DNA of 57,402 bases, taken from the IMG/VR virus record IMGVR_UViG_3300045744_000033, positions 1-57,402 of that record; one strand, written 5' to 3'. This document shows positions 7,079-55,097 of this stretch, one piece after another. The notes under the pieces were generated by a model. It had not been told where the DNA came from, made no database searches, and worked only from the letters and a program-made list of their open reading frames with translations. Position numbers and translations under genes: made by a program. The stretch is from a virus (Duplodnaviria > Caudoviricetes). How positions within the stretch are numbered: the first letter of the stretch is position 1; each line of letters starts with the position of its first letter.

Positions 7079-9888
7079 TGCTGCCCCCCGTCGTCGCCGT
7101 CCTGGCGGCCGACATCACGCCCTTTACCGCCGGGCTGGCCGCCGTCCGCGGAGAGATGGACGTCACGGCCGAGGAGAGCTCCGCCAAGTTCCTCGGCATC
7201 GAGGGTGCTGCGCGCGCGGCCGGGCTCGCCGTGGCCGCCATCGGCGGCGCAGCGGTCGTAGGTGGCCTGATCGCGGTCACGAAGGAGGCCGCCCAGTTCC
7301 AGCAGGAGATGGAGCTGGTCCACACTCAGGCCGGCGCCTCCCAGGACGAGGTCGACCGGATGTCGAACTCGATCCTCCAGATGGCCGGCGCCCTCGGGTC
7401 GACACCCGAGCAGCTCGCGGCGTCCCTCTACCACGTCGAATCGGCGGGTTTCCGCAGCACACAGGCCCTGCAGATGGTCCAGGCGGCCGCCGAGCTGGCG
7501 AAGGTCGGCAACGCCGACTTCGACTCCACCACCCAGGCCGTGATCGCGTCCATGGCCGCCTACGCCGACCAGGGCATGACCGCGGCTCAGGCGATCGCCA
7601 TCCTGAACGCCACGGTCGGTTCCGGGGACATGCGCATGCAGGGGTTCGCGACCTCGATGGGGAGCGGCATCCTGGCCAGCGCGCGAACCTTCGGCCTCTC
7701 GCTCAAGGACGTCGGTGCCGCCATGGCGACGCTGACCGACAACGCGACCCCGCCCGAGGAGGCGGCGACGCGACTGCGCATGACGTTCTCGATGATGGGG
7801 GCGCCGAGCCAGGCGGCGGTCAAGGCGTTCAATGCGATCGGTCTCAACGCGACGTCGCTCGCCGACGACATGCGCAAGCCGGACGGCCTGCTAGTCGCCG
7901 TACAGGACCTCCAGGCGCACCTGAGCCAGATCGATACCTCGCAGCTGCAGGGCGGTCTCGACGAGGCGAAGGCCGACATGGAGAAGTTCGGTTTCACCAC
8001 CGACCAGATCAACCAGATGGTCAGCAAGCTGGGCCCGACCGCGACCGAGCAGGCGGTGATTCTGGCCCGCGCCTTCGGGGGCGGCCGCACCTCGGGAGCC
8101 ATCCTCACCCTCCTCTCGGAGTCGGACCGCCTCAAGCAGAAGTACGCCGACATTACGGCACAGGCGGCCAACTTCGAAGATGACTGGACGAAGACGACGC
8201 AGACCGTCGCCTTCGACTGGAGCGGCTTCGTCGCCGAGATCGAGGCGGACGGGACCCGCGTCGGGAACGTCGTGCTGCCCGAGGTCGGAGCTGCACTCCG
8301 CGACCTCACCGGGTTCATCCACGATGCGGCCAGCGCGGCGGACCAGCTGCCGGCGCACCTGGCGCCGATCGAGACCGCGGCGAGCACCATCGTCGACCTA
8401 TTCACGAAGTCAGACACGACCCCCGATTTGGTCCACCAGACGCAGGCCCCGGTGCACGGCCTGCTCTCGGGCGACGAGCGACCGGTCGGACCGATCAGCC
8501 AGAGCACGCAGATGCTCCTCGCTGGCCACGTGCTCGGCGAGGGCCTCATGAATGGCGTGCGCGACGCCCTGACCGCCGGTGGTGGCCTCGCGAAGACCGT
8601 CGCGACTGCGGTCGCGTCGCTCGATTGGGATGCCATCGGCCAGGACGCCGGCAACGCAGCCTTTCCGTTCTTCGTCGGGTTCATGAACACGCTCTTTTCG
8701 GGTGTCGTCGCTGAGATCCAGCGGCATCCGGTCGAGTCGATCGCGGCCGTCCTGGCGGTCGCCTTCGCGCCGGAGCGTCTTCTTGGTCCGGCGTTGGACG
8801 CGATCAAGGGGATCCCGATCGCTGGTCCCATCTTCGACGCGCTGTTCGGAAACCTACTGCGCGGTATCAACAAGGCCGGGGGGCCCGGACGCGACCTGAT
8901 CGCGAATCTCGTCGCGACCGTCTTCGAGGGCTTTGGCCAGGGTCTCATGCGCGAGGACGGGGCCGTGCTCGTCGCGACGCGAGCCATGCTTCAGGGCGCC
9001 GTCCACACTCTGGAGGATTTTCAGACGTCCGCCTACGTCTACGCGGATGACGCCGCCAAGGCGTTCGGCCGTGGGATCGGAAGCGGCTTCGATCGCGAGG
9101 TGCTGGGGCCACTCCGCGGCATCGTTCGAGACGCCGACACGATCCTCGGGTACCTAATCGGCCGGGCCGGCGAGATCGGAGGGGACGCCATGCGGGCCTT
9201 CGGCACCGAGGTCGACGCGGTCTGGGAGGCGTGGGGCGGCCACAACCTGCCGGTGCTGGTCGACGAATTCCAGGGCTTCTTTCGCGGACTTCCGAACTGG
9301 ATGCTCGACCAGGGCGGCATGGTCCTCGACGGCCTCCGGGAAGGCGTCGAGGAGCGGATCCCCGCGCTCTACGCGCGCCTCGACTCCTTCATCAACGACC
9401 TCGAGGCGCCCTTCGTCGGCCTGTACTCGATCCTCTACGAGGCGGGCGCCTCGGCCATGCAGGGACTCCTCGACGGCCTGTCCGGAGGCGCCTGGTCAGA
9501 CGTCCAGGGTTTCGTGACTCAGATCGCGGGGTGGATCGCAGCTCACAAGGGACCGATCGAGCGCGACCGCGAGCTCCTCCAACCGCACGGCGAAGCCTTC
9601 ATGGAGGGGCTCCACCACGGCCTGACCCGCGGCTTTGACCAGGTCCAGGGACTCGTCCAAGGCATGGCGCAGCGCGTCAGCGACGCGGCCTCCATCCAGG
9701 CTGATCGGCTGCCGGTCACCGGTGTGGCAGCGGGTGGCCGCGGAGGCGCCTCACGTTCGTCCGCCGGGTCGGCACCGGCGGTCGCCGGAACGGCCCCCGT
9801 GATCAACATAACGATCAACGGCGTCAGCAATCCCATCCTCGCCGGCGTCGAGGTCCAGAACCGGCTGGCCAAGCTCCTCGCCACGTGA
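7078..9888 (+). CDS. Tape measure protein (TP901-like core)
   Basis: 936 aa, helical, Ala/Gly-rich; GEAFMEGL motif near the C terminus. Confidence 0.9.
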   Translation: MLPPVVAVLAADITPFTAGLAAVRGEMDVTAEESSAKFLGIEGAARAAGLAVAAIGGAAVVGGLIAVTKEAAQFQQEMELVHTQAGASQDEVDRMSNSILQMAGALGSTPEQLAASLYHVESAGFRSTQALQMVQAAAELAKVGNADFDSTTQAVIASMAAYADQGMTAAQAIAILNATVGSGDMRMQGFATSMGSGILASARTFGLSLKDVGAAMATLTDNATPPEEAATRLRMTFSMMGAPSQAAVKAFNAIGLNATSLADDMRKPDGLLVAVQDLQAHLSQIDTSQLQGGLDEAKADMEKFGFTTDQINQMVSKLGPTATEQAVILARAFGGGRTSGAILTLLSESDRLKQKYADITAQAANFEDDWTKTTQTVAFDWSGFVAEIEADGTRVGNVVLPEVGAALRDLTGFIHDAASAADQLPAHLAPIETAASTIVDLFTKSDTTPDLVHQTQAPVHGLLSGDERPVGPISQSTQMLLAGHVLGEGLMNGVRDALTAGGGLAKTVATAVASLDWDAIGQDAGNAAFPFFVGFMNTLFSGVVAEIQRHPVESIAAVLAVAFAPERLLGPALDAIKGIPIAGPIFDALFGNLLRGINKAGGPGRDLIANLVATVFEGFGQGLMREDGAVLVATRAMLQGAVHTLEDFQTSAYVYADDAAKAFGRGIGSGFDREVLGPLRGIVRDADTILGYLIGRAGEIGGDAMRAFGTEVDAVWEAWGGHNLPVLVDEFQGFFRGLPNWMLDQGGMVLDGLREGVEERIPALYARLDSFINDLEAPFVGLYSILYEAGASAMQGLLDGLSGGAWSDVQGFVTQIAGWIAAHKGPIERDRELLQPHGEAFMEGLHHGLTRGFDQVQGLVQGMAQRVSDAASIQADRLPVTGVAAGGRGGASRSSAGSAPAVAGTAPVINITINGVSNPILAGVEVQNRLAKLLAT

Positions 9889-11777
9889 TCATCAACCAGA
9901 TCGACGTCGGCGGCTTCAACCCCTTCCCCAAGCCGATGGCCGGCCAGGAGGTAGGGACTCAGCTTGTTGAGCGCGCGTCGACCCTGGTCTGGCCGCGCGG
10001 CGCGATCGGCCAGCGCCAGACCGTTCAGTTCTGGGTCAAGGCCTGGCAGTCGATCGGCGGCAACGCCGCCGGCAGCGCCTCCGCGCTCGACCTCCTCTGC
10101 AAGCAGATCGAGGAGCTCGCGAACAACGCCGAACTCCAGCCCTGCTTCATTCAGTGGCGCGCGACCGCCGATCCCGCGGCGGGGTTCAACCAAAGCAGCC
10201 CGGCCGACGGCTGGTACGTGATCAACTCCTTCGAGCCGGACCGCGAGAGCTACCTGTACGGCGGTCTCGTGAAGTGCCAGATGACGGTGACCCAGGTCGC
10301 GCCGCATCCGACGCGCTATGCGATGGGTTCGTTCGGCGGCAATCGGTCGACGAACTACTCGGGGACGCTGCTCACGGGAGGGCTCCTCGCCGCGCCGATC
10401 GGATCGACGAACCCGCTGTTCGGAACCCGCATCGGTGCCGAGGGCAGCTACCCATTCACCTACAACGCCGGGTTCAATCCCTACCCGCTCCTGCTGCCGG
10501 CCTCCGTGGCGAATTGGTGGGCCGGACGAGTGCGGATCTACGACACCATCAACACCACGAGCAACCCCGTCCCGACCACCGGGGGTTACGTGCACGCCAA
10601 CTGGGTCGAGGTCCAGGGGGCCGACCACGACTTCGTCGGTGACTGCGTGATCACCAACGGCCTGGTCCTTCTGCTACTGCAGAACGGGGTCGCCAACCAG
10701 CTGTGCCTCCCGTACGTCTGGAACACCGCGCTTGGCACGCCGGCATGGCAGTCGCCTGGGACGCTGCACACGCTCGACTCCGGCGGCAACCAGTACATGA
10801 CGTTGCGCTCCCTTCGTCTCCAGCGGGTCGGCATGGAGGTCGCCGACGTCATCTGCTCGGTCGGCAGCGGCCTCGCCTACTACGAGGACGTACGGATCCG
10901 GATCGAGCGCGGCTCCTACGTGACTCGGCTCGACATCACGCCCAAGAACTTCGCCGCCACGTACGTGGCGTCCCTGACGCCCGCGTGGACGTCGACGATC
11001 GGCTTCGACTCCACTCACGTCGCCGACAACGCGCTAGCCGCCGAACGATCGACCACCTACGTCGCCACCGACTACGGATACGGCGGTCTGATCCCCAAAG
11101 CCAACGCCAGCTACCAGCTGATCTGCGCTTGGCTCTTCCAGAACCAGCCCGCTTCCGATGTCTTCATGGGCGGGAGCGATTGCTACCTCTACGACAACAT
11201 CGCATCGGGGGCGACCGCCTCATATGGCTTCGCCATGCTGCCTTATTCCGGCGCGCAGAACCTCCAGGGCGAGGCCGAATCCGGCACCATGGCGAACGGC
11301 TGGGCGAGCGCGGCCGACAGCAACGCTTCCAACGGCAACGCCGCAAAGCTCGCCAACGGGACCGGCGGCTCGACTGCGCTCCTGACATGGATGGCTTCCC
11401 AGCAGCTGGGCGCTGGCAGCTGGATCGCCGGGGTGAGGTTGCGGACGACAACCGGGACCAGCCCGAGCGCCACCGAACGCTTCTACGTCTTCGACGTCAC
11501 CGGTAATGTCGGCGTCACCCCCTTCGTGAGCCTCGCGCCCAACGCCGTCGGGAGCACCTACAAGTGGGTCCAGGTCAGCACTCCATTCGCGCCGACCGCT
11601 GGCCACAGCTATCAGCTGCGCTGCGACCAGGGAGCGGGTGTCAACGCGACCGACGACTGGTGGGTCGATGAGGGGGTCTTCCTTCCGACAACGCTGACGG
11701 CCGACAACCGCGGACTCAAGGAGCTCTGGCAGCAGTTCATGTTCGACCGAGACGTCACCTGGTCGCGGGCAGCGTAG
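9885..11777 (+). CDS. Minor tail protein (Dit-like N terminus, possible C-terminal carbohydrate-binding module)
   Basis: Follows tape measure; EAESG...ASNG motif of CBM-like beta sandwiches. Confidence 0.65.
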   Translation: MIINQIDVGGFNPFPKPMAGQEVGTQLVERASTLVWPRGAIGQRQTVQFWVKAWQSIGGNAAGSASALDLLCKQIEELANNAELQPCFIQWRATADPAAGFNQSSPADGWYVINSFEPDRESYLYGGLVKCQMTVTQVAPHPTRYAMGSFGGNRSTNYSGTLLTGGLLAAPIGSTNPLFGTRIGAEGSYPFTYNAGFNPYPLLLPASVANWWAGRVRIYDTINTTSNPVPTTGGYVHANWVEVQGADHDFVGDCVITNGLVLLLLQNGVANQLCLPYVWNTALGTPAWQSPGTLHTLDSGGNQYMTLRSLRLQRVGMEVADVICSVGSGLAYYEDVRIRIERGSYVTRLDITPKNFAATYVASLTPAWTSTIGFDSTHVADNALAAERSTTYVATDYGYGGLIPKANASYQLICAWLFQNQPASDVFMGGSDCYLYDNIASGATASYGFAMLPYSGAQNLQGEAESGTMANGWASAADSNASNGNAAKLANGTGGSTALLTWMASQQLGAGSWIAGVRLRTTTGTSPSATERFYVFDVTGNVGVTPFVSLAPNAVGSTYKWVQVSTPFAPTAGHSYQLRCDQGAGVNATDDWWVDEGVFLPTTLTADNRGLKELWQQFMFDRDVTWSRAA

Positions 11778-13664
11778 ATGGCCGACCCGTTCCCGAAGCT
11801 CAGGTTCAGAGTGATGAACCGCGTCTTCGAGTCCGGCCAGGTCGGGACTGAGGTCATCCGCGACTTCCCGCACGCGCACCGCTCGAAGTGGACGATCTCC
11901 TCCATCCCGCTCGGGTCGCCGGCCTCCGTCGCCTCTGGGAAGTTCGAAATCCCGATGCCGGCCGTCCAGTCGGACGAGTACCGCGGAAGCGTTGAGGTGA
12001 TGAACAAGCTCGCGCGTGGTCAGCGGGTCGAGGGCTACTTCGGACCAGTCGGCGCGGGGGCGCCCACAGTCACGGGGATCATCGATCGCATCGGTCGGAA
12101 ACTCACTGGCGAGTGGCTGATCGAGGGGAAGACGGACCTTTGGATCGCCCAGATGAGCCGCGTCTTTCCGGGAGAAACCGGCGCCGCCTTTGGAACGTAC
12201 GGCGGCCAACCGGCAGCGATCCTCAAGGAGTTCATGGGCGCCAACGAGCTCCAGTTCGGAGACATTTACACGGGCAGCCCATTCGTTGCCGGCAACTACA
12301 TAAGCACGAACGTTCCCGGCGGTCACACCGCGAGCTGGGCGGCGGGGACGGATCCAGTTCTCGGTCTCCCGACCGCAACCGCCAGCGGCGGTGGCGCAGC
12401 GAGCGCCCTCGCCCTGGGCCCGACGTTCTCGGCGCCGACCCTTAATGGGAACTCGAACCGAGCAGCTCTGATTCGGGTGGCCGGCACGGCCATCCCGACT
12501 CCGTCGCTGACGACCGACGGTCAGGTCGCTGGCACCTGGGGAATCGCCTACGGCACCGACGGGAACAACGTGAATGTCTACTACTTCACGTTGAAGTGGC
12601 GGACAGCCACCGGGACGTACGACATCGACGTTCACGCCGATTTTTGGTTCGGCGGGAGCCTCCTCAAGTCCTTCACGGCGACCACGGCGATGACGGGCAT
12701 CTTTGTGTCGACACCGCCGGGCTACTTTTCCTTCGAGCTCGAGGTCGCCTCTTTCGCCAACCCATCGGGGAGTAACCCGATCACTGTCGTCACCCTCAAT
12801 GGAATGCAGGTCCTGACGACGACTTATGTCCAGGACTACTCGTCGGGCGGCAAGGTCGGACCGTTCTTCAGCGACGGTACGAGCGGGGGCGCGACCATCT
12901 ACGCGACGAGTCTCGGCTTCTTCACGCGGTACAACGCCGCCCACGACTCGGCGGGAGCACCGTTCATTGCCGACGCGACATTTGCCGGTCCAACGCTCAC
13001 CGGCGGACCGTCCGCGCCTTCGGGCCCCACGTTTCTCGATATGTGGGGCCGCGCTCAGGATCTCAGCGGCCAGCAGCTCCACTACACGCCGCAGGCGATG
13101 ACGGCGGGCTCGCGGGTGCTCGGGAAGGTCGCCTTCGGCGCGACTCTCGGGACCGACTGGTCGAAGCAGTTCGAGTTTCGAGAGGGCGACGACCTCATCG
13201 ACGTCGAGGAAGACAACGCGGCCGAGGGATACGCGACCGAGCTCGACCTGAGTGATCAGGCAACCGTCGGCAGCGGCGGTGCCGGCCGGTGGTCGAATCT
13301 GGCGGCCATCAAGTCGCTGGGCGTGCTCAGCGATCAGATCCCGAGCGTCAGCGGCCGCGACTTCGCCTCGCTCCTGGCGGCGAGCCAGCGGGCCGCCGGC
13401 AACACGTCGTCGGTGATGGCCCGGCGGATCCGGGTGCCCCTGACCGTGAAGACGGTGCTGATCCGTGAGCTCGACACGGTCGGCGTGCACTGTCCCTCGC
13501 TCGGCTTGTACCACCAGCCCTACCCGGTCGTCTCGAGGACGATCGCTGAGGAGGGCTGGATCGACTTCTTCGTGAGCGCCCTGCCCTTCGCCGACCCCGG
13601 CGCCATGGCGGCCCGAATGTTCAACGGCGTCGACCGCCTCGCGGCGACGTTTGCCACGCGCTAG
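11778..13664 (+). CDS. Minor tail/hub protein with a lectin-like insertion
   Basis: Synteny; beta-rich central region. Confidence 0.6.
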   Translation: MADPFPKLRFRVMNRVFESGQVGTEVIRDFPHAHRSKWTISSIPLGSPASVASGKFEIPMPAVQSDEYRGSVEVMNKLARGQRVEGYFGPVGAGAPTVTGIIDRIGRKLTGEWLIEGKTDLWIAQMSRVFPGETGAAFGTYGGQPAAILKEFMGANELQFGDIYTGSPFVAGNYISTNVPGGHTASWAAGTDPVLGLPTATASGGGAASALALGPTFSAPTLNGNSNRAALIRVAGTAIPTPSLTTDGQVAGTWGIAYGTDGNNVNVYYFTLKWRTATGTYDIDVHADFWFGGSLLKSFTATTAMTGIFVSTPPGYFSFELEVASFANPSGSNPITVVTLNGMQVLTTTYVQDYSSGGKVGPFFSDGTSGGATIYATSLGFFTRYNAAHDSAGAPFIADATFAGPTLTGGPSAPSGPTFLDMWGRAQDLSGQQLHYTPQAMTAGSRVLGKVAFGATLGTDWSKQFEFREGDDLIDVEEDNAAEGYATELDLSDQATVGSGGAGRWSNLAAIKSLGVLSDQIPSVSGRDFASLLAASQRAAGNTSSVMARRIRVPLTVKTVLIRELDTVGVHCPSLGLYHQPYPVVSRTIAEEGWIDFFVSALPFADPGAMAARMFNGVDRLAATFATR

Positions 13665-17508: not shown

Positions 17509-17733
17509 GTGTTCCTCAGCTTTCCGGCGGAAAGAGGCGCGCCGCTCGCGGCTCGACCCCCTCGAGGCGGACGAGCACCGCCTCCGTCAGGCGGCCGATC
17601 TCTTCCAGCTCGCGTGCCGTCGCCTCGTCGCCGGCGGCCTTGGCCTCGCGGTAGGCCCGTCGCAGCGCGCTGACGGCGCTGATCAGCGGGAGGCGCCGGA
17701 TCCGGCTGCGGCTCAGGTGGCCAACCCGGCACG

Positions 17734-18000
17734 TCAGAGGGTGCGGTGTCTACGCAGCCGGACGCGGGCCTTCTCATTCGACGGCGGCCGTCCCGGCCGT
17801 CGAGGGATCCGCGCGAAGGCCTCGACATCGGCCTGCAGCATTGCCCAGTCTCTCCCCATGTTCCGAGCCGACGGGAGGCGCCGCTCGGCGGGTGGCCGCT
17901 CCTGGTCGCGCTCGATGTGCTCCCGCATCGTGTCTGGAGTCACGCCGACGATCGCCGCCGCCTCGCTCACGCTGATGATCCGGTCGATGATGCGTCTCAC
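17734..18000 (-). CDS. Small HTH DNA-binding protein (MerR/Xis-like)
   Basis: ISVSEAAAIVGVTPDTMR HTH and GRDWAM wing; GTG start chosen. Confidence 0.7.
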   Translation of the reverse strand: MRRIIDRIISVSEAAAIVGVTPDTMREHIERDQERPPAERRLPSARNMGRDWAMLQADVEAFARIPRRPGRPPSNEKARVRLRRHRTL

Positions 18001-18047
18001 TCTCCCCACATAGTACACGCATTATCCCCGCACGCGGGGGAGTTTCG

Positions 18048-18056
18048 TGCTATACT
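18048..18056 (+). promoter_or_regulatory. Extended -10 promoter for the tRNA
   Basis: TGc-TATACT 15 nt upstream of the tRNA 5' end. Confidence 0.6.
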
Positions 18057-18071
18057 CAGCGCAGCGAAGGC

Positions 18072-18143
18072 GGGCTGGTAGCTCAAAGGGAGAGCAGGAG
18101 CCTTAGAAACTCCAAGATGCGGGTTCGACCCCCGTCCAGTCCA
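18072..18143 (+). tRNA. tRNA with anticodon TAG (Leu) but a short variable loop and G3:U70/A73
   Basis: Cloverleaf GGGCTGG/CCAGTCC, D stem GCTC/GAGC, anticodon loop CTTAGAA, T arm GCGGG-TTCGACC-CCCGT; CCA not encoded. Confidence 0.85.
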
Positions 18144-18368
18144 TCGCCGAGAAGCACAAGACCGCGGCCCCCTCGCTCGTCGCTACGGGCGCCCGGCTGA
18201 CGATTCGACTCGCCTGCGGGGGCGTTAGAAACCGCGGTCTCGGTGAGAAGCCCCAGTCGGCGACAGCGCCGGTCGGCAGGCGGGGTCTCCCCGCTGACTC
18301 CTCGCGTTGGAGTCTACCCCTGATCCAAGGCATTTGCACCTTGTGCGAGTCCGATCTGTTGTAGCCGG

Positions 18369-18427
18369 TGGTGCCGGGAGGCGAGATTCGAACTCGCACG
18401 GGCGTGAAGCCCAGCGGTTTTTGAGTC
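18369..18427 (-). other. 3' half of tRNA-Leu(CAA): att core-like sequence
   Basis: Minus strand CTCAAAA anticodon loop, long variable arm, GTTCGAATC T loop, ends CGGCACCA; no 5' half. Confidence 0.75.
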
Positions 18428-18523
18428 CCCTCCGCGCCCCGATCAGGCTCGCGGCTCTGCGCGAAGTGCGCGGGCGGCTCGGTCGACCAGCGGCCGGCGC
18501 CGCGGCGGGGAGTCGCGTGACGC

Positions 18524-18832
18524 TCAGCTCGTCTTGAGGCCCAGCGCGGAGAAGACGGCGTACTGAATGACTCCGGCCGCTAGGAAGATCGCGACGCTCG
18601 TCGCGATCTTCACCGCGACCGGCCAGCGCGTGAACCAGACGAGGACGATCCCGAGGATCCAGCAGAAGATGGACGCGACGACGACGTGCCACCAGGCAGC
18701 GATGTACAGCGGATCGACCCGCGCCCAGGCGACTCCGTTCCACCGCCACCTCCCGTCAGCGGAGACGGCCGGCTGCCACACGCTACCGTCCCAGTACCAG
18801 GCGCCGTCGCCGGAGAGCTGGCCTGGTTGCAC
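18524..18832 (-). CDS. Small membrane protein with WYWDG/WRWNG repeats and two TM helices
   Basis: Two S-x-DG-x-W-x-W-(D/N)G repeats then hydrophobic helices; lies between the two tRNA halves. Confidence 0.7.
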   Translation of the reverse strand: MQPGQLSGDGAWYWDGSVWQPAVSADGRWRWNGVAWARVDPLYIAAWWHVVVASIFCWILGIVLVWFTRWPVAVKIATSVAIFLAAGVIQYAVFSALGLKTS

Positions 18833-18913
18833 GGGCCGACTCTAGTTGGCCCGTGGTGGCTCCGGATACCCGTAGCTCGATGCTCATCTGTTGTCAGTCG
18901 CTGTTGTCGAAGC

Positions 18914-18972
18914 TGGCGGAGGGAGGGAGATTTGAACTCCCGAGGGCTCGATACCCTGGCTGTTTTCAAGAC
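18914..18972 (-). other. 3' half of tRNA-Ser(TGA): probable attP core
   Basis: Minus strand CTTGAAA anticodon loop, long variable arm, GTTCAAATC, ends CTCCGCCA; 100 bp from the integrase stop; TGTTGTC repeats at 18889, 18902 and 19071 could be arm sites. Confidence 0.8.
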
Positions 18973-19075
18973 GGGAGCCGAGCGATCTTGAGGTCGCGCC
19001 GTGAGCTTGGAAAAGGCCGCCAGGCCGCGACAACCGCGTCAGTCAACGACCACTCCCTGATGTCTTTTTTTGTTG

Positions 19076-43707: not shown

Positions 43708-44040
43708 GTGGCCATCACATTACCCGGCGTGCAGACCTACCCGACGTTGTCTCTCATAGAGGGAGTCTCGCGCTTGGTCTCAGCCGACGTCATCGCAGCG
43801 CTCCGACCCTCGCTGCTTCAGCGCGCCCGGAGGTTCGCCGATGGGCCGGCCGAGGCCGAGGACCTCGTGCAGGACACGCTTCTGCGCCTGGTCGAGAAGG
43901 AGCCGGAGTGGCGCGGGCTCCCTCACCTCCGCCACTGGCTCTTCACGGTCATGGGCAACCTGGTCAAGGACCGCGGCAGGAAGGCGGCCAAGACGGCGCC
44001 GGTGCTGGCCTACGACCTCGACGGAACAGTGACCTGGTAG
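43708..44040 (+). CDS. Stand-alone ECF sigma region 2 protein
   Basis: AEAEDLVQDTLLRL...WLFTVMGNLVKDRGRK; no region 4. Confidence 0.8.
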   Translation: MAITLPGVQTYPTLSLIEGVSRLVSADVIAALRPSLLQRARRFADGPAEAEDLVQDTLLRLVEKEPEWRGLPHLRHWLFTVMGNLVKDRGRKAAKTAPVLAYDLDGTVTW

Positions 44041-48665: not shown

Positions 48666-50042
48666 ATGCCCGCTCCAGTACCTGGTGCGGCCGTGACGGC
48701 CATCGCCGCCGTCGTGCGCCTCGACAAGCTGCTCGCCGAGCGCGCTGACGAGGAGATCGTCGTCGACCAGGATCGCCCGCTACTGGCGCTCTACAACGGG
48801 CGCCAGGTCGAGGTCGTCGCCGTGCTCGAGCGGACCGCCGTCATCCGGCCGGATGCTGCCCACCGCTACGACCGCGTCACCGTGAAGCACGATCTGCTCG
48901 AGGTCGACCCGCACCTGGCGACCTGGCGCCAGCGGCCGGGCAACGTCTGGCGGAACCATGCCCGCGTCGGCCGCGAGCAGGCGGTGCGCGGCAAGGCCAT
49001 CACAGTCCACATGCCGGACCGAGTCCAGCAGGTCGACAAGGCGCCGATCACCACCTGCAGCTGTGACCCGATCTCCAGCCCGGCCAACTGTGCGCGCCTG
49101 GCACCGCTGGGCCTCGTCCCGCATCCGGGCGGCGGCCGCACTGCCGGCACCGACCGCTACGTGCACTGCAGGCGCTGGCTCCAGGAGCACGAGGAGGCCA
49201 AGCTCGCGCAGCCGGAGCCCGAAGAGGACGACGACGACGCGGGGCTCGAAGAGATCGCCGAGCTCGAGTCAGATCAGCCCGCTGGGCCTGCCGAGCCGAT
49301 AGCGCATCCCGGGCCCCGCGTCGCGGAGGTCGAGCGGGTGGGTCCAACGTCCCTGCCGGCGGCCCGGCCGAAGCCGGTGGACAGCCGCCAGCCGGACGCC
49401 CGAAGCGAAAGCCAGGGGCCGCCCGCTCCCTCCTCGGCTCGCTGCACGAAGTGCGGACTGACCGGGAAGCTCGATGACGATGGCGTCTGCCATCGGCACG
49501 GCAAGCCGCGCCAGTTCACCGAAGAGCAGCGCGCCGCCTCCGCGGAGCGGATCCGAAAGGTGACCGCCGAGCGGCACCCAGCTCCGGTCCGGCGCCGGCC
49601 GCGCCAGCCCACGGTCCGGTGCAAGGTCTGCGGCCAGCCGACCCACCGCGTCGACGTCGGCGCCTGCAAGAAGTGCGAACCGCTCCTCGAGGAGTCGAAG
49701 GCCGGCCTGGATCCGGCGCCGGCGGCGGACGTCGCAGCTCACGCTCCCGCTACTCCACCGTCGCCGACGTCGGACCTAGCCGAGACCGAAGCCGCAGGCG
49801 CGTCCGCCACGACGACCATCCGGACCGTGGTCGAGGTCCCGGACATCCTCGGGCCGCTCATGGCAACGCCCGAGCCTGCCGAGCAGCACCTCGGCCTGAT
49901 CGCCCGCTACATCGAGCGCGTCCAGGACCTCGAGCGCGAGAACGTCGAGCTCCGCCGGCAGCTCGCCGAGGAGCAGGGGCGCCGGGCGAGGCTCGAGGCG
50001 ACCATCGAGGGGATCGCCGAACGGATCCGGAGGCAGGGATGA
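48666..50042 (+). CDS. Large hypothetical protein with Zn motifs and a C-terminal coiled coil (start uncertain)
   Basis: Long ORF with phage codon bias; ATGA overlap with terS. Confidence 0.65.
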   Translation: MPAPVPGAAVTAIAAVVRLDKLLAERADEEIVVDQDRPLLALYNGRQVEVVAVLERTAVIRPDAAHRYDRVTVKHDLLEVDPHLATWRQRPGNVWRNHARVGREQAVRGKAITVHMPDRVQQVDKAPITTCSCDPISSPANCARLAPLGLVPHPGGGRTAGTDRYVHCRRWLQEHEEAKLAQPEPEEDDDDAGLEEIAELESDQPAGPAEPIAHPGPRVAEVERVGPTSLPAARPKPVDSRQPDARSESQGPPAPSSARCTKCGLTGKLDDDGVCHRHGKPRQFTEEQRAASAERIRKVTAERHPAPVRRRPRQPTVRCKVCGQPTHRVDVGACKKCEPLLEESKAGLDPAPAADVAAHAPATPPSPTSDLAETEAAGASATTTIRTVVEVPDILGPLMATPEPAEQHLGLIARYIERVQDLERENVELRRQLAEEQGRRARLEATIEGIAERIRRQG

Positions 50043-51896: not shown

Positions 51897-54800
51897 TTGC
51901 CGCACCCGTCCTTCGCCGAGCTTCAGCGACGCGAGCGAGAGCAGCTTCGGCTCCTCAACCAGCGCCGCGCGCGCTGGGAGGAGATGTCGAAGGCGGCAGC
52001 GGGGCAGGAGGTCGCTGCCGTAGCCGCGGTTGGGCCGGCGATCGGGTCCATGATGGGCGGTCAGGCGCCGACCCCCGAGCAGCAGCGCGCGATGCAGCTG
52101 CAGGGGATGGAGACGGGTGGCGCTTTTGCGCCCGGCAGGCCTCTCGACCAGTTCTTTCCCCGCGGCACGCCGCCTCGTCAGTGGGACTACCCCACCGGGC
52201 ATAACACCGCCGCACGGCCGCGCGCGAACACCGGTCGACCCAGCTTCACGACGCTCCAGGGCATCCTTCAGGCCTGGGACGTCGCGCGGCTGTGCATCGA
52301 GCACATCGAGGACGACCTTCGCTCCCTCGACTGGTCGATTGCCCCGGATGAAGGCGTCGAGGAAGACGTCAGCGACCAGGTCAAGGCAGCCCGGAAGTTC
52401 TTCGACAAGCCCGACGGCCTGACGCCGTTCGACTCCTGGCAGCAGGAGCTGCTCGAGGATCTCCTGCGCTTCGATGCGCCGGCTGTCTTCAGGCGCCGGA
52501 CGCGGAACGGCAAGGTGGGTGCGCTCGAGGTCGTCTCCGGCGTCACCATCGCGCCGCTCCTGGACTACTACGGCCGGACTCCGACGCCGCCCGCTCCTGC
52601 GTATGTCCAGTACACGAACGGCGTCCCCGCGGTGTGGCTGACGAGCGACGACCTGATCTATCGACCGTTCCGGACGCTCCCCGAGTCGCCCTACGGCCTG
52701 CCGCCGATCGAGTGGCTGCTGCTCACCGCCAACACCGATATCCGCTTCCAGTGGCACTTCCTCATGTACTTCACCGAGGGGACCGTTCCGGAGGCGTTCA
52801 TGGAGGCGCCCCCGGACGCGAGCGATCCCGAGCAGCTCGAGGCCTTCCAGAACATCTATGACGCCGCCATGGAGGGTGACCAGGCGCAGAAGCACCGGGT
52901 GCGCTGGATCCCGCACGGCTCGAACCCGCACATCCTCGAGCACAAGAACTTCGACGCCAGCTTTCCGCTCTACCTGATGCGCAAGACGTGCGCGGCGTTC
53001 AAGGTGGTTCCGGCCGACATCGGCATCACCGACACCGTCAACAAGGCGTCCTCCGAGACACAGATGGACGTCCAGTTCCGGACCGGGACGATGCCGCGCG
53101 TCCGCTACCTCCAGGGTCTCTACACGAGGATCCTCCAGGACGACCTCGGGCTGAAGGGCGTCCAGTTCAAATTCGACACCGGGCGCGAGAAGGAGGATCG
53201 CCTCGACGAGGCGCGCGCACACCAGGTCTACGTTTCGATCGGCGCCGAGTCCCCGGACGAGGTCCGCAAGAACGTGCTCGGCCTCGAGGTCGACACCGAG
53301 AACCCCGTCCCGCGCTTCGTGCTCAGCCAGCGTCTGGGCGCGATCCCGCTCAAGAGCATCGTCGAAATCTCAGGCGACATCAATCCCGGCACGGCGGCCC
53401 CAGAAGACGTCGATCTCCTCGACGTCCCCGGCTACATTGCTCCGGCGGGTGTCGTCCCCGCGCCTGGGGACTCTCGCGACGTCCGTGCGAAGCAGGCGGC
53501 TCCGCAGGCGGCGACGCCGGTCTCCGCGGCGGATGTGGCCGGGCGCGACGATGACGAGGAAGCGGCCCAGCCCACCGTCGACAGCGGCGAGCCGAGTGAT
53601 CGCGAGCTCCGAAAGGAGCTGCAGCGCTGGCGCGACAACGCCCGGAAGCGCGTACGCGCCGGCCGCCGGCCGAGGATGTTCGAGAGCGACCTCCTGCCGG
53701 ACCCAGTCGCAGACATTGTTTGGTCGAAACTCGAGAAGGCGACGTCAGCCGCGGAGGTCGATGACGCGTTCCGCCTCCCTTTCGGGAGTGACCGCCATCG
53801 CCTGATCGCGGCCGGACTCGCTGTCAAGGCCGACGACACCGGCCGCGTCCTGCTCCTGCAGCGGTCGACCGCCGACCCCGACGATCCCGCGGCTGGGATG
53901 TGGGAGTTCCCGGGTGGCCAAATCGAGGACGGCGAGCAGCCCGTCGCGGCCGCGAAGCGCGAATGGGAGGAGGAGACCGGCGCCGAATTGCTGCCGGGCG
54001 AGGTCGTCGCCAGCTGGGTGAGCCCGAACGGGATCTACCAGGGCTTCGTCTACGTGATCGCGCACGAGGCCGACCTGGTCATCAACCTCGACCACGAGGA
54101 CCGCGAGGTCCTGAATCCGGACGACCCGGATGGCGACCAGATCGAGGTCATCGCCTGGTGGGATCCGACCCACCTGCCCGACATGCCGGCGCTGCGCCGC
54201 GAGGCGAAGGCGACCGACTGGGCGGCGATCGCCGCCGCGCGGCTGCCCGAGGCGCGCCTCGCGAAGGCGCTCGAGCACCACCACGACGAGCGCCTGGCGC
54301 CGACCGAGGACCACTTCGCCGACGCACTCCTCGACCCGCTGAAGCTCGGGCTCAGTGGCCGGGCGATCGCCCGTGGCTGGGCCGCTAGGTCGCACGACGA
54401 GCCGCACCGGATGGCCAAGGCAGTCGCGCAGCCGGATCCGGAGCTCGAGCAGGAGGCGCAGGCCTACGTCAACGGCCTCACGGTCGACCCGAGCGCGCTC
54501 CACAAGCTGATCCAGCTGCTCTACCGGAACGGCTACCTGGCGGGCGTGATGGTCAACGCCAAGGAACTGGCCAAGCTCGGCATCCAGGTGACCGGCACCC
54601 TCGGCGCCGCCGTCCAGGGCATCAGCGACTGGGGCGCCTTCTGGGCAGCCTGGCAGCCCGGAAACGACGCCGCGGCCGACCAGCTGGCCGCGATCGGCGG
54701 CGGCGAGGGCCTGGCCAAGCTCCTCGAGCAGGCTCGCGTTACGATCCGCGGAATCCAGAACGAGACGCTGTCTCGGCTCGCCAGGGTGCTCGCCGCCGGC

Positions 54801-55097
54801 GCGCGGCGCGGCGCCTCGGTCGACGAGATGGCGGACGACCTGGACGTGGTCCTCGAGGACCGAGCCCGCGCCCGGACCATCGCCACCACCGAGCTCGCAC
54901 GCTCCGTGTCGGCGGCCACCCGCGATGTGTACCGCCAGAACGCCGTCGAGCGATGGGACTGGATGCCGGCGCCGGACGCCTGCGCCACCTGTGAGGCGAT
55001 CGCCGCCGGCGGTCCGTACTCGCTCTTCGACGACATGCCCCCCGCGCACCCGAATTGTCGCTGCACCGCCTCACCACACCTTCGGGAGGACGACTAG
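51897..55097 (+). CDS. Portal protein fused to a NUDIX domain and a MuF-like minor head domain
   Basis: Portal motifs (YGLPPIE); NUDIX box PGGQIEDGEQPVAAAKREWEEETG; RARTIATTE...C..C...PPAHPNCRC. Confidence 0.88.
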   Translation: MPHPSFAELQRREREQLRLLNQRRARWEEMSKAAAGQEVAAVAAVGPAIGSMMGGQAPTPEQQRAMQLQGMETGGAFAPGRPLDQFFPRGTPPRQWDYPTGHNTAARPRANTGRPSFTTLQGILQAWDVARLCIEHIEDDLRSLDWSIAPDEGVEEDVSDQVKAARKFFDKPDGLTPFDSWQQELLEDLLRFDAPAVFRRRTRNGKVGALEVVSGVTIAPLLDYYGRTPTPPAPAYVQYTNGVPAVWLTSDDLIYRPFRTLPESPYGLPPIEWLLLTANTDIRFQWHFLMYFTEGTVPEAFMEAPPDASDPEQLEAFQNIYDAAMEGDQAQKHRVRWIPHGSNPHILEHKNFDASFPLYLMRKTCAAFKVVPADIGITDTVNKASSETQMDVQFRTGTMPRVRYLQGLYTRILQDDLGLKGVQFKFDTGREKEDRLDEARAHQVYVSIGAESPDEVRKNVLGLEVDTENPVPRFVLSQRLGAIPLKSIVEISGDINPGTAAPEDVDLLDVPGYIAPAGVVPAPGDSRDVRAKQAAPQAATPVSAADVAGRDDDEEAAQPTVDSGEPSDRELRKELQRWRDNARKRVRAGRRPRMFESDLLPDPVADIVWSKLEKATSAAEVDDAFRLPFGSDRHRLIAAGLAVKADDTGRVLLLQRSTADPDDPAAGMWEFPGGQIEDGEQPVAAAKREWEEETGAELLPGEVVASWVSPNGIYQGFVYVIAHEADLVINLDHEDREVLNPDDPDGDQIEVIAWWDPTHLPDMPALRREAKATDWAAIAAARLPEARLAKALEHHHDERLAPTEDHFADALLDPLKLGLSGRAIARGWAARSHDEPHRMAKAVAQPDPELEQEAQAYVNGLTVDPSALHKLIQLLYRNGYLAGVMVNAKELAKLGIQVTGTLGAAVQGISDWGAFWAAWQPGNDAAADQLAAIGGGEGLAKLLEQARVTIRGIQNETLSRLARVLAAGARRGASVDEMADDLDVVLEDRARARTIATTELARSVSAATRDVYRQNAVERWDWMPAPDACATCEAIAAGGPYSLFDDMPPAHPNCRCTASPHLREDD

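Follow-up and report, generated by a model that had tools for sequence, protein, structure and literature searches.

The virus record IMGVR_UViG_3300045744_000033 carries a tRNA gene (18072-18143, plus strand; 72 nucleotides, nt) in which the anticodon and the acceptor end point to different amino acids. The anticodon, TAG, reads the leucine codon CUA, while the acceptor end bears the features by which alanyl-tRNA synthetase (AlaRS) selects its substrates. The window (the whole stretch of DNA that was analysed) is a complete IMG/VR virus record of 57,402 bases with a G+C content of about 70%, and its DNA originates from soil metagenomes. We find that the tRNA gene is real, phage-borne, of mixed identity, and probably transcribed. 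By sequence comparison it is a mosaic of three parts, with a core like that of tRNA-Gly(UCC), an acceptor end of the alanine type, and the anticodon of a leucine tRNA. It is a stand-alone unit with its own promoter, located in the lysogeny module beside the probable phage attachment site (attP). As sequenced, the tRNA could insert alanine at the leucine codon CUA. Our favored reading is an expressed, alanine-accepting CUA reader with a small effect, which we hold tentatively at a probability of roughly 45%.

ARAGORN reported a single tRNA in the whole window, at 18072-18143(+), and typed it as Leu with anticodon tag. The same interval matched Rfam RF00005 at 60.1 bits (cut-off 29; E = 1.5e-10) over model positions 1-71, the full model, and the cloverleaf was the minimum-free-energy fold of the 72 nt. 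The acceptor stem (GGGCTGG/CCAGTCC) pairs as G1:C72, G2:C71, G3:T70, C4:G69, T5:A68, G6:C67, and G7:C66, with A73 as the discriminator; CCA is not encoded. The D arm (GCTC-AAAGGGA-GAGC) has a 4-bp stem, the anticodon arm is GGAGC-CTTAGAA-ACTCC with C31 facing A39, the variable loop is AAGAT (5 nt) with A15 paired with T48, and the T arm is GCGGG-TTCGACC-CCCGT. All stems are intact except pair 31:39. The universal tertiary bases are also kept (U8, A14, G18G19, U33, T54-T55-C56, and A58). A first-pass annotation of this DNA had described an intact cloverleaf with G1:C72, G2:C71, G3:U70, A73, a 5-nt variable loop, A15:U48, a TAG anticodon, and a C31-A39 mismatch, and every one of these items is present in the sequence. 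A candidate second tRNA copy, decayed and lying downstream as a repeat, was rejected after its local alignment scores fell inside the range of shuffled sequences.

The same annotation had named a sequencing error in the anticodon as an outcome that would overturn it. Contigs from runs X1/X2 (the probable source of the window DNA) and from a second run (X3/X4, where X3 shares their sample code) both span 17700-18554. They showed 0 differences, in a comparison that represents independent sequencing but not an independent sample. As the second run gave identical letters, the tRNA sequence, anticodon included, is not an assembly slip.

To our knowledge, AlaRS, leucyl-tRNA synthetase (LeuRS), and seryl-tRNA synthetase (SerRS) are the only synthetases that disregard the anticodon. 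SerRS requires a long variable arm and G73, both of which are missing from the phage tRNA. For AlaRS, the listed marks are A73, G2-C71, G3.U70, G4-C69, and G20, with the last two minor (PMC9976931). G3.U70 is described there as the major determinant, able to move alanine acceptance into other tRNAs, and G1-C72, G2-C71, G3.U70, and A73 as conserved in all known non-mitochondrial tRNA-Ala. All four conserved features are present in the phage tRNA; G4-C69 is missing. The state of position 20 depends on the alignment used: the third G of the D loop AAAGGGA falls there by alignment to Gly(UCC) loops (AATGGCA), while the Rfam alignment puts the G's at 17-19 and leaves 20 empty.

To place these features in context, we compiled 285 distinct tRNAs from integrase-linked loci, five actinobacterial genomes, phage arrays, and BLAST hits. 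The pair G3:T70 was present in 13/13 Ala tRNAs and in 0/271 other non-Ala tRNAs (272 non-Ala when the phage tRNA is included). Because of this distribution, charging by AlaRS is the best-supported fate of the molecule, and is likely if the RNA is made. The earlier argument that the molecule would be a substrate of AlaRS and not a normal tRNA-Leu gains from these comparisons, as it carries the four conserved tRNA-Ala features and its acceptor end and D stem are unlike those of the short Leu tRNAs of other phages. The features of class II tRNA-Leu are also absent: there is no long variable arm, no 3-bp D stem, and no GCC/GCG acceptor end (GGG instead). The additional claim that a short variable arm excludes leucine was too strong. 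E. coli LeuRS is reported to need A73, A15-U48, and correctly placed G18G19, with the long arm dispensable (PMC9976931), and the required bases are present here. Dual charging with alanine and leucine is possible by analogy with tRNA-Tyr, which accepts both amino acids when given G3.U70 (PMC9976931).

The alanine-type end does not reflect descent from a tRNA-Ala, as judged from the anticodon (TAG, not NGC) and from the nearest cores, which are Gly(tcc). A BLAST search with the 72 nt matched 17 of 401 Actinomycetota genomes at 76-83% identity over positions 7-65, and the nearest tRNA at these 17 loci was Gly(tcc) in 15 cases and Thr(tgt) in 2. Compared to the Gly(tcc) anticodon arm GGAGC-CTTCCAA-GCTCC (locus L296), the phage arm differs only by C35A, C36G, and G39A, and the C31-A39 mismatch results from G39A. 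Against an acceptor stem of the Gly type (GCGGGTG/CACCCGC, U73), the phage stem shows paired changes at 2:71, 4:69, 5:68, and 6:67, together with C70T and U73A. Despite four double changes, the acceptor helix is fully paired, and the D and T stems are intact. This is the pattern of a molecule kept in tRNA shape.

Retention of a Gly-like core does not extend to glycine identity. The bacterial glycyl-tRNA synthetase set is given as U73, C2-G71, G3-C70, C35, and C36 (PMC9976931). In their place the phage tRNA has A73, G2:C71, G3:T70, A35, and G36, and only G1-C72 is shared. A whole-molecule isotype profile (leave-one-out accuracy 174/203) returned negative scores throughout and so matched no isotype; the best were Arg at -12, Lys at -15, Asn at -16.6, and Ala at -19.6, with short Leu at -38. 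A core-only profile scored Ala at -19.8 and short Leu at -29 and favored Gly, a preference that is inflated by the enrichment of the set with BLAST hits. The 18-nt D arm was found as an exact match in five IMG/VR contigs, where it belongs to tRNA-Ala(tgc) in two, tRNA-Asn in one, and an identical tRNA with an 8-nt anticodon loop in two. This last tRNA (76 nt; L105 6367-6442 and L106 3869-3944; read as 'tttg' by ARAGORN) is possibly of the frameshift-suppressor type.

An extended -10 promoter-like motif, TGCTATACT, lies at 18048-18056 (plus strand), 16 nt 5' of the first base of the tRNA. It is the only occurrence of TGNTATANT on either strand of the window, against an expectation of 0.12, in keeping with the earlier proposal that the tRNA has an extended -10 element of its own. 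A two-hexamer sigma-70 scan of 17600-19100 detected no full promoter and no match to a -35 element.

From these features we infer how the gene would act. Transcription would start from the extended -10 motif, the transcript would be trimmed by host RNase P and 3' processing enzymes, and CCA would be added by the host CCA-adding enzyme. Host AlaRS, blind to the anticodon, would then charge the product through G3.U70, G1-C72, G2-C71, and A73. The UAG anticodon would read CUA; with an unmodified U34, it might also read other CUN codons. Alanine would thus enter at a low rate at leucine codons, against competition from host tRNA-Leu.

Within the lysogeny module, the tRNA gene lies between genes for an excisionase-like protein and a tyrosine integrase. 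The first of these genes (17734-18018, minus strand) encodes a 94-amino acid (aa) excisionase/MerR-like helix-turn-helix (HTH) protein, assigned from Pfam HTH_17 (E = 4.2e-5, below the curated cut-off), PHROG excisionase families (E ~1e-4), and its codon-position GC pattern; it and the tRNA gene are divergently transcribed. On the 3' side of the tRNA there are 380 non-coding bases, then a small open reading frame (ORF), then the integrase. The small ORF (18524-18832, minus strand; 102 aa) comes from the codon-usage gene call and is possibly a membrane protein, with a weak match to TMEM_230_134 (E = 0.007). The integrase (19076-20293, minus strand; 405 aa) was identified by Pfam Phage_integrase (E = 6.2e-20), by SAM-like and central domains, and by PHROG_1 integrase (E = 1.8e-63).

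Near the tRNA we identified the 3' part of a class II tRNA-Leu(CAA) at 18369-18429 (minus strand), running from the anticodon loop ACTCAAAA to CCA. This fragment of about 60 nt spans the anticodon loop, the long variable arm, the T arm, and CCA, and both BLAST matches and the context of integrase relatives point to it as the probable attP core for the tyrosine integrase. It had matches in 36/401 Actinomycetota genomes; one of the 36 (G348) is flagged as unpublished, and none of the conclusions drawn here relies on it. The 20 loci that were fetched were Leu(caa) in 19/20 and Leu(taa) in 1/20, at 77-92% identity. Relatives of the integrase adjoin tRNA-Leu(caa) at two loci (L153, where the integrase is 38% identical, and L171) and a fragment at a third (L045). 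An arrangement of this kind is typical of the attP core of a tyrosine integrase. The same kind of attachment site, tRNA-Leu-CAA, is reported for the mycobacteriophages Omega and Gaia (PMC10865867). Because only 225 nt separate the attP-like fragment from the 3' end of the odd tRNA, the latter would sit at the very end of the prophage. As a pointer to the host, the fragment gave best matches of 82-84% over about 60 nt in the 401 genomes, with 91-92% reached only in partial matches of 32-36 nt, one of them to Leu(taa). No contig joint or loose end at attP was seen in metagenome contigs, which has no bearing on whether an integrated form exists.

Two further observations concern this fragment. 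It carries one base beyond the standard 7-nt 3' strand of the acceptor. In addition, the Rfam tRNA-Sec model aligned to 18373-18455(-) at 23.6 bits, under its cut-off; in this alignment the 5' strand is 8 nt long, the anticodon stem is unpaired, and a D arm is lacking. The wider stretch, 18369-18455(-), may represent a full-length copy that has decayed, or the alignment may be due to chance.

A codon-usage gene call produced 86 genes (17,181 codons) for the window, and 50 of the 86 predicted proteins were covered by Pfam and PHROG scans. By the gene content seen in these scans, this is a siphovirus-type temperate phage. Recognizable products include a terminase, a portal-NUDIX-MuF fusion, a protease, a tail tube, a tape measure, a lysin-like protein, the excisionase-like HTH protein, the tyrosine integrase, and an HTH-TPR regulator. 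The capsid protein is 39-40% identical to capsids of Arthrobacter phages. The 'terminal repeat' of the window is only a 22-nt end overlap, as circular assembly would give. The fusion is a single 1066-aa ORF (51897-55097, plus strand) that combines a portal domain with NUDIX hydrolase and Mu F-like head-morphogenesis domains. Another ORF of 103 aa (43729-44040, plus strand) had sigma-70 region 2 as its sole match (E = 2.2e-12) and may encode a short phage sigma-like factor.

Several findings weigh against an expressed, alanine-accepting CUA reader, and these concern the molecule itself, its relatives, and the codon that it would read. Pair 4:69 is C4:G69 in the phage tRNA, compared to G4:C69 in 12/13 and G4:T69 in 1/13 of the Ala tRNAs. 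Its A73, A14, A15 with T48, and G18G19 also fit the rules of an E. coli-type LeuRS. There is no intrinsic terminator in 17600-19100. The anticodon loop has A37, compared to G37 in the cellular Leu(tag) tRNAs of the set (L290 and L116), and G37 is usual in CUN readers. Together, the C31-A39 mismatch and A37 may weaken decoding.

Relatives of the gene were also sparse. An exact-pattern scan of IMG/VR from the anticodon to the T arm, with the anticodon left open, returned 0 matches, as did a search for the 3' 23-mer of the tRNA in 185,579 species genomes. Among the 401 Actinomycetota genomes no BLAST match to the tRNA exceeded 81% identity. The five nearest structural relatives among the available records (tail tube 47-54% identical) gave 0 tRNA hits; all are fragments that are 12-78% complete. 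The most complete is a 65-kb record (78%) that carries an integrase, and the other four are small. Tail-tube proteins of 47-56% identity are also encoded on long contigs, of up to 97,661 bases. Among 50,697 phage records, a blastn search with the 72 nt found at best tRNA-Gly or tRNA-Met genes of unrelated phages, at 73-80% identity. Searches based on the integrase in IMG/VR, genomes, and metagenomes yielded relatives of at most 41% identity, none with a similar tRNA, and no IMG/VR relative was found for the tail genes at 11778-13664 and 9885-11777. A lineage-specific accessory gene fits better than a device on which the phage depends.

Codon usage gave no sign that the phage relies on this tRNA. 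CUA accounts for 23/17,181 codons, or 1.5% of the CUN box. This is the lowest share of an A-ending codon among the eight four-codon boxes, with GUA close at 1.9%. On the phage side of the comparison of CUA usage proposed in the first-pass annotation, the codon thus shows neither enrichment nor clear avoidance. The three CUA codons that were tested (3/3) all fell in alignment columns with a Leu majority. In the tail tube, the column held L in 75/120 and A in 8/120 sequences, and the two columns of gene 9885-11777 held L in 20/21 and 12/21, with no Ala. Gene 48693-50042, which has two CUA codons, had no homologue for alignment. From the agreement of all three aligned sites, the phage's own genes read CUA as leucine, and full recoding of CUA to alanine, as in Ashbya mitochondria, is excluded for these three sites. 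Efficient insertion of alanine at such Leu-majority sites would be costly. Insertion at a low rate, in competition with host tRNA-Leu, may still occur. Separately, TTA codons were absent (0/17,181 in the 86-gene call), as in hosts where TTA is nearly unused.

The same observations bear on several other explanations. The gene could be a passenger relic, left over from attachment-site recombination or derived from a captured and mutated tRNA, that is silent, unstable, or uncharged and without effect on the phage. A relic would be in keeping with a site 225 nt from attP, in a stretch that also holds a tRNA-derived fragment, and with a singleton that lacks homologues, is absent from the five nearest structural relatives, and leaves no codon-usage signature. 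The changes C35A, C36G, and G39A relative to the Gly(UCC)-type arm, the last of which breaks a base pair, also agree with decay, as does the lack of a terminator and of a -35 element in 17600-19100. However, the Rfam score of 60.1 bits is near that of cellular tRNAs (63.5-78 bits among the 150 matches listed), only pair 31:39 is broken, and acceptor pairing has been kept through four double changes. The window's sole extended -10 motif also lies at the right distance, and no second decayed copy was detected nearby by alignment scores. On balance we consider a relic somewhat unlikely. A short-armed leucine tRNA, charged either by LeuRS only or by both LeuRS and AlaRS and serving the rare codon CUA, would agree with the presence of A73, A14, A15 with T48, and the D-loop GG and would suit the Leu positions of the phage's CUA codons (3/3 tested). 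Precedents exist in Leu-anticodon tRNAs of 75-77 nt with 5-nt variable loops (L104, L108, L116, and L032), two of which share the loop CTTAGAA. These compact tRNAs nevertheless have GCC/GCG-type acceptor ends and 3-bp D stems, neither of which is found in the phage tRNA, and the short Leu profile scored poorly both for the whole molecule (-38) and for the core (-29). Moreover, G3:T70 (0/271 other non-Ala tRNAs) would draw AlaRS, and CUA is not enriched in the phage. We regard this explanation as clearly improbable.

A role outside decoding, whether as a decoy or substitute against tRNA-cutting enzymes, as an alanine donor in a reaction outside the ribosome, or as a site where another mobile element docks, appears no more credible than a short leucine tRNA. 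Changes in the anticodon loop have been proposed to let phage tRNAs escape defences that target tRNAs (PMC10264068), and the loop CTTAGAA does have A37 where the cellular Leu(tag) tRNAs L290 and L116 have G37. Yet there is no host or defence system known for this phage, and its sequence holds no sign of a nuclease target. For the donor role, the Mom protein of phage Mu is described as modifying DNA with the use of Gly-tRNA (PMC13219725). Because no GNAT, Fem-type, or other aminoacyl-tRNA-using enzyme was found by Pfam among the 50 proteins scanned, a Mom-like function is without support. We find it very improbable that the gene serves tRNA-dependent lysogeny, in which the phage supplies a tRNA to make up for the host tRNA gene lost on integration, as in the mycobacteriophages Fionnbharth and Gaia. 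The setting is suggestive: a temperate phage with a tyrosine integrase, a tRNA-derived attP, and one adjoining tRNA gene. Gaia and Omega integrate at tRNA-Leu-CAA, with the Gaia tRNA next to int (PMC10865867), and the extra base in the tRNA-Leu(CAA) fragment might spoil the rebuilt tRNA. In contrast, that strategy is defined by a short common core (about 10 bp) and a cognate phage tRNA (PMC10865867). The fragment here, at about 60 nt, resembles those through which phages such as Omega restore the host tRNA, and the phage tRNA reads CUA, not UUG, and bears alanine marks. It is unlikely that the gene is a purpose-built missense tRNA that is expressed from the prophage end or early in infection, is loaded with alanine by host AlaRS, and reads CUA so that host or rival-phage proteins receive Leu-to-Ala errors in a controlled manner. 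Phage-directed mistranslation had been put forward as a purpose in the first-pass annotation, but the gene had no homologue in the collections searched, five relatives lack the tRNA, CUA is the least used A-ending codon, and the tested CUA codons (3/3) fall in Leu columns. Purposeful mistranslation is thus unproven, with some evidence against it.

In working principle, the closest known system to an alanine-accepting CUA reader is the mitochondrial tRNA-Ala(UAG) of Ashbya gossypii, which has G3:U70, is charged by AlaRS, and causes CUU/CUA to be read as alanine (Ling et al. 2014, PMC3874161). The two share the UAG anticodon and G3:U70, and the identity of the Ashbya tRNA is reported to switch with one change at position 3 (PMC3874161). 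They differ in that the Ashbya tRNA is the sole mitochondrial decoder of CUU/CUA, with an adapted proteome (PMC3874161), whereas the phage tRNA would compete with host tRNA-Leu.

In bacterial natural history, the closest counterparts are G3:U70 allo-tRNAs and also the tRNA-ProX of Streptomyces. In these high-GC actinobacteria, tRNA-ProX is a dedicated extra chromosomal tRNA with an anticodon mismatched to its amino acid and with a synthetase of its own, ProRSx; by comparison, no synthetase gene was found among the 50 phage proteins scanned. Some G3:U70 allo-tRNAs of Acidobacteria and metagenomes are reported to insert alanine in E. coli (Mukai et al. 2017, PMC5389517). Allo-tRNAs are natural bacterial tRNAs in which, as in the phage tRNA, anticodon and identity disagree, and their (9/3) forms include anticodons for the codons UUA, UUG, CUA, and CUG (PMC5389517). 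Unlike the 7/5 cloverleaf and 5-nt variable loop of the phage tRNA, they are described with 8/4 or 9/3 geometry and long variable arms (PMC5389517).

In genomic setting, the phage comes closest to actinophages that use tRNA-dependent lysogeny (Guerrero-Bustamante and Hatfull 2024, PMC10865867), with which it shares a temperate actinophage-type genome, a tyrosine integrase, a tRNA gene as attB (in the present case a probable one), and a single tRNA near int/attP. The cases described there have a cognate isotype and anticodon and a core of 8-17 bp (PMC10865867), compared to UAG against CAA and about 60 nt here. The phage tRNA is not a member of this group, given the long core-like fragment and an anticodon that differs from that of the attP tRNA.

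The compact Leu tRNAs of phages and mycobacteria share with the phage tRNA a Leu anticodon and a short variable loop, and the anticodon loop CTTAGAA is identical in the Leu(tag) tRNAs of L104 and L108. They have Leu-type GCC/GCG acceptor ends and Leu-type D arms and lack G3:U70, in contrast to the Ala-type end and Gly(UCC)-like core described here. We located such Leu-anticodon tRNAs of 75-77 nt (tag, taa, and caa) in two large phage tRNA arrays (L104 953-1108 and L108 975-1204), in a Mycobacterium chromosomal array (L116 1199-1273), and beside an integrase in an Aeromicrobium metagenome-assembled genome (L032 7572-7647). Leu tRNAs of this short-armed type seem to be a recurrent feature of mobile elements. 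A dense tRNA array was also seen within about 14 kb of a Mycobacterium chromosome (L259; G005:C1:3824000-3842000), where 19 distinct tRNAs were first found, with more in the overlapping L116 and a genome total of 87 tRNA hits. It matches the tRNA array units described in PMC5966550.

A full-text literature search found no virus-borne tRNA with a canonical cloverleaf that combines alanine identity with the sense anticodon of another amino acid; supplements, including those of PMC10865867 and PMC5389517, lay outside this search. Beyond the first-pass annotation, the adjacency to attP and the Gly(UCC)-like core are new.

Natural tRNAs in which anticodon and identity are mismatched are rare, and they are raw material for change in the genetic code. 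They are present in yeast nuclei and in Streptomyces. Those cited above come from mitochondria (PMC3874161) and soil bacteria (PMC5389517). Were the phage tRNA purpose-built for missense reading, programmed mistranslation of a sense codon would have its first viral example, one built on a Gly(UCC)-type scaffold with a changed acceptor end and two changed anticodon bases. If it is inert, it would show how few changes convert a tRNA: a re-paired acceptor stem, a C-to-T change at position 70, and two changes in the anticodon. If it is made and loaded with alanine, it would be a natural starting point for the design of missense suppressors, and it would show that one gene of 72 bases is enough for a phage to change what a host codon means, without a phage-encoded enzyme.

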